Shown here: piece after piece, positions 51,701 to 54,700 of the stretch
Layout: each line of letters starts with the position of its first letter
How positions within the stretch are numbered: position 1 is the stretch's first letter
Assembly: GCF_013315695.1 (NCBI RefSeq)
Contig: NZ_CP054353.1
Strand: one strand, 5' to 3'
From: Escherichia coli
GTDB taxonomy: Bacteria; Pseudomonadota; Gammaproteobacteria; Enterobacterales; Enterobacteriaceae
Length of the DNA: 64,000 nt
Position numbers: made by a program

Positions 51701-54700
51701 GCTGTCATCGGGATATACTCGAACTGGCGGATACGGTAAGTGAGTTACGCCCCGTGAAACATGCGTTTGATGCTGGCGTAAAAGCACAGATAGGGATTGA
51801 TTACTAAGTGAAAGCACCTCAAAAGATTGCCTCTTGAGGTGCTTTAATCATAATTATATTCAAGCGGCAATAGCAAAATTCAGAATGCGTATAATCTCAT
51901 TGAAATGTCTCTGATATGTTTCATGATTCTCAGCGTCAACATCTTCAATAAATAATATCAGTTCAGTAATTAGCGCATTAGCATCGTCATAATTTATCCC
52001 TGCTAACTCTGGCGAAGTTTCAGTACCATAGTTAATCGTCAGGTTGTTCATAACTGTGAGGATATGGATAAAATATTTATGACAAACATTACATGTGGTT
52101 TTATTGCCCAGGGTATTATACAGCATATCAAGTAATGCCAGTATTCTACGATTTTGCACATCGTTCATAAAAAGCCTCCTATAACATTATTCCGCTGGCA
52201 ATAAGTAATTTTGCCAGCCCCTCAGACGCCTTTAACCCACTAATGACCTGTGCGCGCAATATCTCATTTAACCTTTTTTGTTCAGCTGCCGTGCGTGTTT
52301 TATTAACATATAAATTATTCAGATAATCACCCTTATCTATAAAGGCATTTAAAGCCTCAATTGCGGGCATGGCAGGTGCCGATGCCTGTAGCCTGGTTTC
52401 ATTCACATTGATTACTGAACTTAGAAACTCCTTCCTGTTTTTCAGAGTGTTAAACTCTGTATTCTTAGCGTTTTTAGATGCCGTACTATAATAAAACATA
52501 TTATCATGCACATTCGCAAAGGTATAATTTTCAATCTTATTGCTTTTTGTATAAATATCATTACGCAAAACTGTCATGTTCCCTATAAGTCTTACCCAGT
52601 TTTCATCTACCGTTTTGCCTATTTTTCCAGAATTGACTTTTATTATATATAACTCATTGAAATAATTTACCAAATCTTTAACCGCTGCTGCAGATTGTGC
52701 TAAATCTTTGCTATGTGAAATACCAAGTAGTGTTTGTGCGTTATTTGCGTGATCCAGAGCCTGTTTAAGTAATGCCACTTGCTGACTTTCTGTCGTTGCC
52801 ATGTCCTCATTCAGAAGTTCTACATAAGCGCTCATGCTATTAATGACTTCCATTGAAGCCAGTAATTTTTCTTTCTCGAAAGTGACTAATTGTACTTTTT
52901 TTGTATTTGGCCCAGGGCGCTGGCATAATTTTCCGCCATTACCATCACCGCCTATATCTATGGTATAATCAGGTCGCAATGCACAATCCGGATTAGTCGC
53001 ATAAAAATTAACAAGGAAGTTTTCACGAGAAGCATAGTATTGTTTAAAGAAACTTGCATTCGCCGCAACCGCCTTGTTACCCGCAGTAATAACAGTTTCA
53101 GCTTGTTCATTCTTCAATGCTTCGGTTGCACAACCTGAAAGCATTAACAGCGGGTGATGCTGCCAACTTACTGATTTAGTGTATGATGGTGTTTTTGAGG
53201 TGCTCCAGTGGCTTCTGTTTCTATCAGCTGTCCCTCCTGTTCAGCTACTGACGGGGTGGTGCGTAACGGCAAAAGCACCGCCGGACATCAGCGCTATCTC
53301 TGCTCTCACTGCCGTAAAACATGGCAACTGCAGTTCACTTACACCGCTTCTCAACCCGGTACGCACCAGAAAATCATTGATATGGCCATGAATGGCGTTG
53401 GATGCCGGGCAACAGCCCGCATTATGGGCGTTGGCCTCAACACGATTTTACGTCACTTAAAAAACTCAGGCCGCAGTCGGTAACCTCGCGCATACAGCCG
53501 GGCAGTGACGTCATCGTCTGCGCGGAAATGGACGAACAGTGGGGCTATGTCGGGGCTAAATCGCGCCAGCGCTGGCTGTTTTACGCGTATGACAGGCTCC
53601 GGAAGACGGTTGTTGCGCACGTATTCGGTGAACGCACTATGGCGACGCTGGGGCGTCTTATGAGCCTGCTGTCACCCTTTGACGTGGTGATATGGATGAC
53701 GGATGGCTGGCCGCTGTATGAATCCCGCCTGAAGGGAAAGCTGCACGTAATCAGCAAGCGATATACGCAGCGAATTGAGCGGCATAACCTGAATCTGAGG
53801 CAGCACCTGGCACGGCTGGGACGGAAGTCGCTGTCGTTCTCAAAATCGGTGGAGCTGCATGACAAAGTCATCGGGCATTATCTGAACATAAAACACTATC
53901 AATAAGTTGGAGTCATTACCTTAACAGCGATAGAAATATTCCACTATATCTAATCATAACCCACCTCTTGACGTTGAGTTTATCTCAGATAATTAAATAG
54001 TAATGTGGCTATTTCCTGGTAATATTCATAAGCAAGTATGAAATTAAATTAAAATACTGCGACTATTTATCATACTTCAAATGAAGAAAAGGCCCCGCAG
54101 GGCCTTTATTTTATACTTAACTTAAATTAACCGTTATTATTACGTCCGCCAGAACGACGACCGCCGCTCACCTGACTGTGACGTTTCACCGCACGACGAA
54201 TCTGATTCGCCTTCATGCGACGACGGTCTTTTTCTACAGCGACTTTAGAGCTGGTTTCTGGCGGTAGCTCCACCAGTTCGCGCAGATAGTTAGTCTGGGC
54301 GAGGTCCAGCTCCGTCCAGCCACCGCGTGGCAGACCTTTTGGCAGTGGGATATCACCGTAACGAACACGGATCAGGCGGCTCACCTGCACACCAACCGCT
54401 TCCCAAAGACGACGAACTTCACGGTTACGGCCTTCGGTCAGAGTAACGTTGTACCACTGGTTGATCCCTTCGCCGCCGCTGAACTTGATGGTTTTAAAGG
54501 CTGCCGGACCATCTTCCAACTGCACGCCACGACTCAAATCACGCAGTTTCGCGTCGTCAACCTGACCAAATACACGCACGGCATATTCACGTTCAACTTC
54601 ACGGCTTGGGTGCATTAAACGGTTTGCCAGTTCACCATCGGTGGTGAACAGCAGCAGACCACAGGTATTAACGTCCAGGCGCCCCACGGCAATCCAGCGT

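Follow-up and report, generated by a model that had tools for sequence, protein, structure and literature searches.

The locus examined here raises the question of what a complete insertion sequence has done to the lipoprotein gene in which it lies, how recently it arrived, and whether the loss of that gene points to selection or to the target preference of the element. The window is the whole 64,000-nucleotide stretch of Escherichia coli DNA that was analyzed (contig NZ_CP054353.1). Its relevant features are as follows.

51808-54126, no strand: accessory low-GC islet from the cobO stop to the rluB stop (1,542 bp without IS1)
51811-51845, no strand: terminator-like inverted-repeat hairpin (I2) at the cobO-proximal islet end, from the repeat search
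51860-52168, minus: downstream partner gene, 102 aa, with no recognizable domain; intact in the window and disrupted by ISKpn26 in MSB1_4I
52179-53144, minus: 3' remnant of the lipoprotein gene, an ORF of 321 codons from Met13 (MLSGCATE...); WP_021562996.1 in MSB1_4I
53144-53152, no strand: left copy of the target-site duplication (TSD), TTAACAGCG; on the minus strand, codons 10 to 12 plus the A of Met13; from the sequence and the repeat search (family D14)
53153-53920, plus: complete IS1 (IS1A isoform), 768 bp; end-to-end identity of 100% to annotated IS1A and of 768/768 to the MSB1_4I copy at the same site
53153-53175, plus: left terminal inverted repeat (IRL), GGTGATGCTGCCAACTTACTGAT; 18/23 positions complementary to IRR
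53208-53483, plus: insA (91 aa), an ORF matching NF033558 (IS1 family transposase) and NF050000 (zinc-binding domain)
53459-53465, plus: A6C programmed -1 frameshift motif giving the InsAB' transposase (53208-53905), read from the sequence; the identical element in MSB1_4I is annotated "programmed frameshift"
53898-53920, plus: right terminal inverted repeat (IRR), which carries the TAA at which the target gene's 5' stump terminates
53921-53929, no strand: right copy of the TSD, TTAACAGCG; from the sequence and the repeat search
53916-53957, minus: detached 5' portion of the lipoprotein gene (ATG at 53957-53955), translated as MIRYSGIFLSLLR and then a stop inside IRR
53962-53969, minus: ribosome-binding site (RBS) AAGAGGTG of the lipoprotein gene, now serving the 13-codon stump only
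54088-54107, no strand: bidirectional terminator-like hairpin downstream of rluB, insulating the lipoprotein promoter region from rluB

The element is identical over its full length to many annotated IS1A copies, the matching entries being labeled "IS1-like element IS1A family transposase." Its termini (GGTGATGCTGCCAACTTACTGAT at the start and ATCAATAAGTTGGAGTCATTACC at the end) form imperfect inverted repeats, and the insB' frame (53402-53905), which overlaps insA, is intact. The InsA and InsB' parts score 91.3 and 145.6 bits, respectively, against NF033558, whose cutoff of 100 bits is set for the whole protein. Membership in the IS1 family is indicated by the length and inverted repeats, by insA and insB' with the A6C motif, by an abutting duplication of 8 to 9 bp, and by the identity to IS1A. 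With every sequence determinant intact, this copy is probably still active. The initial annotation had described a complete 768-bp IS1 in the orientation opposite to that of the disrupted gene, and its coordinates prove exact; insA lies on the plus strand and the target gene on the minus strand.

The flanking 9-bp direct repeat was also recovered on re-reading and by an independent repeat search of the window, in which the two copies of TTAACAGCG are spaced 777 nt apart (i.e., 768 + 9). A 9-mer repeat by itself has little meaning: the same 9-mer also occurs at positions 2928 and 21363 of the window, and the surrounding 2.5 kb holds 13 further direct repeats of 9 to 14 nt. The pair is significant because both copies abut the IS1 termini exactly, which for a pre-specified pair of positions has a chance probability of about 4^-9, or 4e-6. 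Genomes without the IS1 hold a single copy of TTAACAGCG at exactly that point. IS1 is known to generate TSDs of 8 to 9 bp, to prefer AT-rich DNA, and to hop locally (PMC5009759).

Excising IS1 together with one copy of TTAACAGCG restores, as had been proposed, a continuous ORF of 333 aa on the minus strand, which begins MIRYSGIFLSLLMLSGC and shares 99% identity with WP_000622025.1, an annotated coding sequence of 1,002 nt. The RBS AAGAGGTG lies upstream of its ATG, and its N terminus has the features of a lipoprotein signal peptide (i.e., R3, an h-region, and the lipobox L14-S15-G16-C17). All members of the family share the lipobox L-S-G-C17, and C17, C66, and C86 are invariant in 45 homologs, a pattern consistent with an exported, disulfide-bonded lipoprotein. 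Relatives in AFDB carry the name "Lipoprotein," and the Ala at position +2 of the predicted lipoprotein implies sorting to the outer membrane by the E. coli +2 rule.

Hundreds of complete E. coli genomes carry the ORF without interruption, the exact 80-nt empty-site junction is found in five other genomes (L002, L003, L004, L005, and L006), and the near-isogenic isolate AF3 has an empty site with 1 SNP in 1,543 nt. The occupied junction is shared with 1 of 5,426 complete genomes, MSB1_4I (NZ_LR898874.1), whose IS1 at this site is identical to the window copy at 768/768 positions; among evenly sampled cassette-bearing genomes, 1 of 40 is split here. MSB1_4I and the window strain are clonally related; in a 48.7-kb comparison the two differ at 4 SNPs, at a single 11-bp indel, and by an ISKpn26 that lies in the partner gene of MSB1_4I. 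A recent insertion is supported because the junction occurs in 1 of 5,426 genomes, the two IS1 copies are identical, and near-isogenic AF3 is empty. The initial annotation had likewise called the event recent, from the intact TSD; the rarity of the junction and the empty site in AF3 are stronger evidence.

The disrupted gene belongs to an accessory islet with a GC content of 31 to 42%, compared with about 50 to 57% in the flanks. Its neighbors, cobO and rluB, are core genes, and the vicinity holds no phage genes. The islet is present in 1,237 of the 5,426 complete E. coli genomes (about 23%), and K-12 has a 39-bp spacer instead at the same place. The cassette alleles in E. coli are divergent and have mosaic boundaries. 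The disrupted gene had been assigned to an operon; it does have a downstream gene, but the unit is just a two-gene cassette, in which the 102-aa partner gene starts 10 nt past the lipoprotein stop.

The insertion separates the start of the gene from the rest. This separation, and the removal of the promoter with it, had been correctly recognized, but the severed portion comprises 12 codons plus 1 nt when the TSD copy is included (9 1/3 unique codons) rather than 10 codons. The resulting 13-codon stump, MIRYSGIFLSLLR, terminates at a TAA within the right IS1 end. On the other side, the stretch from the upstream stop within IS1 to Met13 contains no in-frame start codon (ATG, GTG, or TTG), nor was a Shine-Dalgarno sequence found ahead of Met13, so that the remnant could initiate only at the Met of MLSGC, as anticipated. 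The remnant lacks a usable signal peptide, also as anticipated, since it retains neither the n-region nor the h-region; with just four residues (MLSG) ahead of the lipobox cysteine, its product would be neither exportable nor lipidated. On the minus strand, the promoter scan detected no promoter-like site reading outward from IRL, and a terminator-like hairpin lies inside IS1 on that strand (53293-53279). As the remnant is left with no promoter or Shine-Dalgarno sequence and with a product that would be neither exported nor lipidated, we infer that the disrupted allele is a recent null. The insertion is probably also polar, silencing the 102-aa partner gene, since this gene follows the lipoprotein stop after 10 nt and cotranscription of the two is presumed. 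A promoter-like site matching at 9 of 12 positions is present upstream of the partner gene (52343-52314, minus strand), and weak transcription, either initiated internally or arising by read-through, might still allow some expression of the remnant or the partner gene.

The preferred reading, which we hold with high confidence, is a simple IS1A insertion into an accessory lipoprotein gene that created a recent null allele. In an IS1-rich E. coli lineage, an IS1A copy would have entered the chromosomal gene at its AT-rich 5' end by simple insertion, and staggered target cleavage followed by repair would have produced the 9-bp duplication TTAACAGCG. The signal-peptide codons are thereby split, leaving the promoter, the RBS, and codons 1 to 12 to drive just a 13-residue peptide ending in IS1. 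The insertion dates from after the split from an AF3-like ancestor and before the split between the window strain and MSB1_4I, in which the decaying cassette afterwards took ISKpn26 as well. Of this account, the anatomy, the empty site, and the phylogenetic distribution are observed directly, and the losses of expression and export, like the polarity, are inferred. Loss of this dispensable accessory gene, in DNA favored by IS1, is by default assumed to have been neutral or near-neutral.

The assumption of near-neutrality could be challenged, as the closest relatives carry independent IS insertions in the islet that differ in position and occur in either orientation. MS 21-1 has an IS1 with the TSD AACTTAACA about 140 bp deeper into the gene, AF10 and AF14 have two IS1 copies, AR_0013 has an IS1 in mid-gene, EC488 has an IS1-family element in the upstream region, and Ec-U3 retains a lone IS1 between the islet ends, with both genes gone. 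The elements of Ec-U3 and EC488 are a different IS1 isoform (WP_223216367.1). If the cassette were costly or disadvantageous in this lineage, for example as a surface target of phage or immunity or as a toxic module, IS knockouts would be positively selected, which would explain the independent hits in MS 21-1, AF10, AF14, AR_0013, MSB1_4I, EC488, and Ec-U3. Given the 40 or more IS1 matches in the 5.28-Mb MSB1_4I chromosome, uniform targeting predicts about 0.01 insertions per genome in 1.5 kb. However, the pattern was spotted post hoc, and selection is not needed to account for the clustering, given the preference of IS1 for AT-rich DNA, its local hopping (PMC5009759), and the ease with which a dispensable gene tolerates insertions. 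Moreover, ranks 7 to 60 of the best 60 cassette matches are all intact, few sampled carriers (the 1 in 40 above) are split at this site, and the cassette has no known phenotype. Across the 1,237 carriers, the IS hits seen among the matches listed are within a few-fold of the uniform expectation, a modest excess; for the same reason, we do not claim a universal IS1 hot spot in the islet. We regard adaptive loss as unlikely.

Homology searches gave few clues to the function of the cassette. Neither the lipoprotein nor any of its 45 homologs matched Pfam, and NCBIfam returned only noise for the lipoprotein. PADLOC gave 0 hits for the cassette proteins, PHROGs gave 0 hits for four lipoproteins and four partners, and a tblastn search of 50,697 phage records found no match. 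A sequence-profile search of the PDB with the lipoprotein returned only noise (E>0.02). For structural comparisons, we used an AF2 model built from a 45-sequence alignment (pLDDT 76), a 13-sequence model (pLDDT 54) being unusable. Foldseek searches of the PDB with this model gave nothing below E=1e-2, and the weak matches (ClyA, BAR, and TTYH) reflect generic long-helix similarity. A ClyA-like pore-former, considered for its combination of a helical bundle with one beta-hairpin, was rejected: instead of being hydrophobic, the hairpin (residues 73 to 97) is glycine-rich and polar, and no TM score exceeded 0.30. DUF3829 (PF12889)/YiiG lipoproteins are similar in size (about 330 to 350 aa) and mostly helical, and some AFDB50 fold matches are labeled DUF3829 (E values of 3e-7 to 2e-2; TM scores of 0.4 to 0.54). 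Membership in this family was nevertheless rejected, as 0 of 45 family members match Pfam and hhalign against K-12 YiiG gave a probability of 2.5% with the signal peptide alone aligned. The partner protein had no match in Pfam, the PDB, NCBIfam, PADLOC, or PHROGs, its homologs are all labeled "hypothetical," and a literature search on six WP accessions found no mention of them.

A further comparison is with the prophage moron lipoproteins of temperate phages, such as Bor, Cor, and Llp, which confer serum resistance or superinfection exclusion. The product of the disrupted gene is likewise predicted to be a lipoprotein, with Ala at +2. In a P2-like prophage, a remote homolog, P0036 (23% identity), and its partner of about 96 aa are flanked by a gpS-like and a gpV-like gene, and the gpS-gpV interval (P2 orf30) is a moron slot of P2-like prophages (PMC6823313). 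In contrast to these lipoproteins, the window copy lies outside a prophage, is far larger (333 aa), and has an obligatory small partner; compared with the characterized exclusion lipoproteins, there is no sequence or fold similarity, and PHROGs, PADLOC, and deposited phage genomes hold no match. The occurrence in the P2 moron slot, the divergent alleles with mosaic boundaries, and the low GC content are the basis for a speculative proposal: the cassette might be an undescribed mobile two-gene module, consisting of a helical outer-membrane lipoprotein of about 330 aa with a conserved disulfide and an obligatory cytoplasmic partner of about 100 aa, that acts in phage-host or cell-surface conflict (e.g., superinfection exclusion or defense), and its repeated destruction by IS elements in one lineage might result from selection against it and not simply from the target preference of IS1. 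We consider this proposal doubtful.

A change of regulation instead of a loss of function appears very improbable. IS1 ends reportedly form hybrid promoters, as Prentki et al. are said to have described in 1986, and the outward-reading IRL does hold a -35-like TTGGCA 8 nt from the IS1 tip, through which the remnant, the partner, or both might be newly expressed, for example as a cytoplasmic, nonlipidated form. However, 17 nt past TTGGCA stands the hexamer TGCTTT, which has 2 of the 6 bases of TATAAT but not its A at position 2, and no promoter was detected by the scan at TTGGCA/TGCTTT. A transcript from this site would start at or beyond the Met13 ATG, again with no Shine-Dalgarno sequence, and folding of a cytoplasmic remnant is unlikely given its two conserved, probably disulfide-forming cysteines. 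Finally, misplacement of an IS1 copy by repeat misassembly, a common source of misjoins for an element as multicopy in this lineage as IS1 (at least 40 matches in MSB1_4I), is scarcely credible here, as the perfect 9-bp TSD marks real transposition rather than a misjoin and both junctions are identical in the independently assembled complete genome of MSB1_4I.

Simple IS1A insertion with loss of the lipoprotein gene also agrees with known behavior of the element. It does not differ mechanistically from other insertional inactivations by IS1 (IS1A/IS1R) in Enterobacteriaceae, with which it shares the 768-bp length, the 23-bp imperfect repeats, insA/insB' with A6C, the 9-bp TSD, and the AT-rich target; its particular point is the target, i.e., the signal-peptide codons of an uncharacterized accessory lipoprotein. 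The same insertion is already contained in the RefSeq genome NZ_LR898874.1, and the mechanism is ordinary and textbook. The series from intact (AF3) to IS1 (the window) to IS1 plus ISKpn26 (MSB1_4I) resembles the stepwise IS decay seen in Shigella and IS-rich E. coli, and Ec-U3, with a single IS1 between the islet ends and both genes absent, resembles an IS1-mediated deletion. The compared genomes are, however, separate lineages or alleles, and a single trajectory is not demonstrated by them.

The insertion itself has little importance beyond annotation hygiene: RefSeq labels the 321-aa MSB1_4I product WP_021562996.1 a plain "hypothetical protein," not a pseudogene, although it is what remains of a lipoprotein gene after its disruption. 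The locus offers a clean, datable case of IS1 inactivation, with a "before" state in AF3 and an "after-after" state in MSB1_4I with its additional ISKpn26. The one wider, if minor, lead is the orphan module of a lipoprotein and its partner, which occurs in about 23% of the complete E. coli genomes and for which the natural knockouts cataloged here might be used as ready-made mutants of the cassette.

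The element at 53153-53920 is a complete IS1 in the signal-peptide codons of a lipoprotein gene, and the locus is an ordinary case of gene knock-out by IS1 insertion. The initial annotation had read it in this way and was right overall, its codon counts needing minor correction. A read of 52800-54700 with a script check found the 9-mer TTAACAGCG as a direct repeat, with copies at 53144-53152 and 53921-53929 that lie flush with the ends of a 768-bp segment; this segment starts with GGTGATGCTGCCAACTTACTGAT and ends with ATCAATAAGTTGGAGTCATTACC. A repeat finder independently recovered this pair (family D14; spacing of 777 = 768 + 9). 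The same 2.5 kb contains 13 further chance repeats of 9 to 14 nt, and TTAACAGCG also occurs at window positions 2928 and 21363; the target-site duplication (TSD) is convincing because its copies abut both IS ends exactly and because a single copy stands at that point in IS-less genomes. The terminal inverted repeats are imperfect (18 of 23 positions match). Over its full length, the element shows 100% identity to elements that thousands of plasmids carry under the annotation "IS1-like element IS1A family transposase"; E. coli MSB1_4I has an identical copy, whose annotation names a programmed-frameshift transposase. Judged from its sequence, the element has every defining feature of IS1, including the following:

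53208-53483: insA, an open frame matching the NCBIfam IS1 transposase model
53402-53905: insB' frame, open and matching the NCBIfam IS1 transposase model
53459-53465: A6C frameshift motif, read in the sequence

In silico removal of IS1 and one repeat copy restored, as had been predicted, a minus-strand ORF of 333 aa (MIRYSGIFLSLLMLSGCATE...) with a ribosome-binding site (RBS; AAGAGGTG) directly upstream and a lipoprotein signal peptide. This ORF shares 99% identity with WP_000622025.1, a 1,002-nt CDS of strain CUVET19-1396, and differs by a single residue (P100T) from WP_001571343.1 of AF3, a near-isogenic isolate; both strains carry the gene uninterrupted. The lipobox (L-S-G-C17) is invariant within the close family, and an alignment of 45 members, remote homologues (15 to 25% identity) among them, keeps C17, C66, C86, and Y119 without exception. 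The two additional invariant cysteines would fit a periplasmic disulfide. Under the E. coli +2 rule, Ala at position +2 leads to outer-membrane sorting; the Ala at this position implies such a destination for the reconstructed lipoprotein.

The insertion left the following minus-strand features of the lipoprotein gene and its partner:

53962-53969, minus strand: RBS of the lipoprotein gene
53957, minus strand: ATG of the lipoprotein gene
52179-53144, minus strand: lipoprotein remnant (321 codons)
51860-52168, minus strand: partner gene (102 aa), starting 10 nt past the lipoprotein stop

The lipoprotein promoter, RBS, and ATG now serve only the stump MIRYSGIFLSLLR, which terminates at a TAA within the right IS1 end. 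The remnant frame stays open for 35 codons upstream, into IS1, a stretch in which ATG, GTG, TTG, and Shine-Dalgarno sequences are all absent; translation can thus begin only at Met13 of MLSGC, as the initial annotation had held. Since the product would have only four residues before the lipobox cysteine, neither export nor lipidation is expected under signal-peptide requirements. A promoter scan found none facing outward from the left IS1 end, which carries an outward TTGGCA with TGCTTT 17 nt on, and a minus-strand terminator-like hairpin lies within IS1 (53293-53279). Because the partner gene is probably co-transcribed with the lipoprotein gene, the insertion is likely to be polar on it.

The same insertion already stands in a public RefSeq genome, where it was not flagged as a disruption. 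A junction-spanning query found the occupied site in one complete genome only, that of the clonal relative MSB1_4I, which matches the window at both junctions and in each of the 768 IS1 bases. Over 48.7 kb, the differences between the two are 4 SNPs, an 11-bp indel, and an ISKpn26 in the partner gene of MSB1_4I only. AF3, which is ~100% identical over 23 kb, has an empty site with a single 9-mer copy (1 SNP in 1,543 nt). These comparisons suggest an order from an intact, AF3-like state through IS1 (window) to IS1 plus ISKpn26 (MSB1_4I), so the proposal that the insertion is recent is well supported.

Other features of these two genomes were also observed. RefSeq lists the 321-aa remnant of MSB1_4I (L001:3427-4392) as an ordinary "hypothetical protein" (WP_021562996.1) with no pseudogene label, so the annotation does not show that the signal peptide is truncated. 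A TetR/RND/MFS efflux cluster (window ~20600-28190) includes an outer-membrane-factor gene that lacks 11 bp at ~22248 when compared with MSB1_4I; the deletion splits this gene into minus-strand ORFs at 21780-22277 and 22213-23142, so that it is probably a frameshift pseudogene. The yciW gene (~29421-30610, plus strand) is annotated as frameshifted in the nearly identical MSB1_4I; the window ORF stops early, at 30461, and has one SNP against MSB1_4I, at 29496.

The two genes form a cassette within a chromosomal segment ordered sapA-F ... fabI ... topA-yciN-sohB-yciK-cobO, islet, rluB-yciQ-yciO-rnm-trp. The 1,542-bp islet (31 to 42% GC), which is bounded on either side by hairpins of its own, replaces a K-12 cobO/rluB spacer of just 39 bp with one shared hairpin. 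Among 5,426 complete E. coli genomes, 1,237 carry it, 424 of them with the window allele; in ~800 of the carriers, a second cassette allele encodes a lipoprotein 65% identical and a partner 72% identical. The allele boundary is sharp and mosaic (window 51860-53957 versus L003:2876-4216, a comparison locus), with lipoprotein residues 1 to 72 identical and the last ~30 identical or nearly so, a pattern that points to recombination or to diversifying selection in the middle of the protein.

Neither protein was recognized by Pfam, NCBIfam, PADLOC, PHROGs, PDB sequences, or phage genomes, and close homologues of both are all "hypothetical" proteins from Escherichia and Citrobacter. An AF2 model of the lipoprotein (45 sequences; pLDDT 76.4, pTM 0.72) shows an elongated bundle of helices and a single beta-hairpin, polar in character (residues 73 to 97). 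An AFDB50 fold search returned family members and a few "DUF3829" lipoproteins; membership in DUF3829 was rejected, as hhalign against K-12 YiiG covered the signal peptide only (probability of 2.5%). A gene of 96 to 107 aa directly follows the lipoprotein gene in every genomic context examined, its products being weakly alike with one invariant Cys. One remote pair (a 357-aa lipoprotein homologue and a 96-aa partner; L011:4001-5375) lies in a P2-like prophage between tail-completion (gpS-like) and baseplate (gpV-like) genes, an interval that corresponds to the P2 orf30 slot; P2 is known to have three moron regions, of which this is one (PMC6823313). A second pair is found in an island that also carries VapBC and Fic genes. 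These contexts hint that the cassette is a mobile, conflict-related module.

IS insertions of relatives, mapped on the AF3 cassette, were as follows:

MS 21-1 (L006): IS1 with TSD AACTTAACA, ~140 bp deeper in the gene than the window insertion, oriented as in the window
AF10 and AF14: two IS1 copies, oriented opposite to the window IS1
AR_0013: variant IS1 interrupting the lipoprotein gene near its midpoint
EC488: element of the IS1 family (8-bp TSD), upstream of the lipoprotein gene and within the T-tract of the rluB terminator
Ec-U3 (L022): single IS1 between kept islet ends, both cassette genes deleted

The window and MS 21-1 TSDs, from independent insertions, share the hexamer TTAACA, which may reflect chance or a local target preference. 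In Ec-U3, both end hairpins are kept around the IS1-family element, and this state looks like the end point of an IS1-mediated deletion.

In a handful of genomes (L001, L004, L006, L008, L009, and L010), this 1.5-kb islet has taken in five or more independent insertions of IS1-family elements and a single ISKpn26, at different sites, in both orientations, and with individual 8- to 9-bp TSDs. Most of the affected genomes are the window's closest relatives, in which these insertions far exceed a uniform expectation; matches ranked 7 to 60 among the best listed for the cassette are all intact, and of 40 carriers sampled evenly, only one is interrupted at the window insertion site. MSB1_4I contains 40 or more IS1 matches. 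The known preference of IS1 for AT-rich targets and its local hopping (PMC5009759), together with tolerance of hits in a dispensable gene, are sufficient to explain the recurrence; selection for cassette loss is a possible alternative reading of the repeated hits. As a small side lead, the locus offers an orphan cassette with a series of natural knock-outs.
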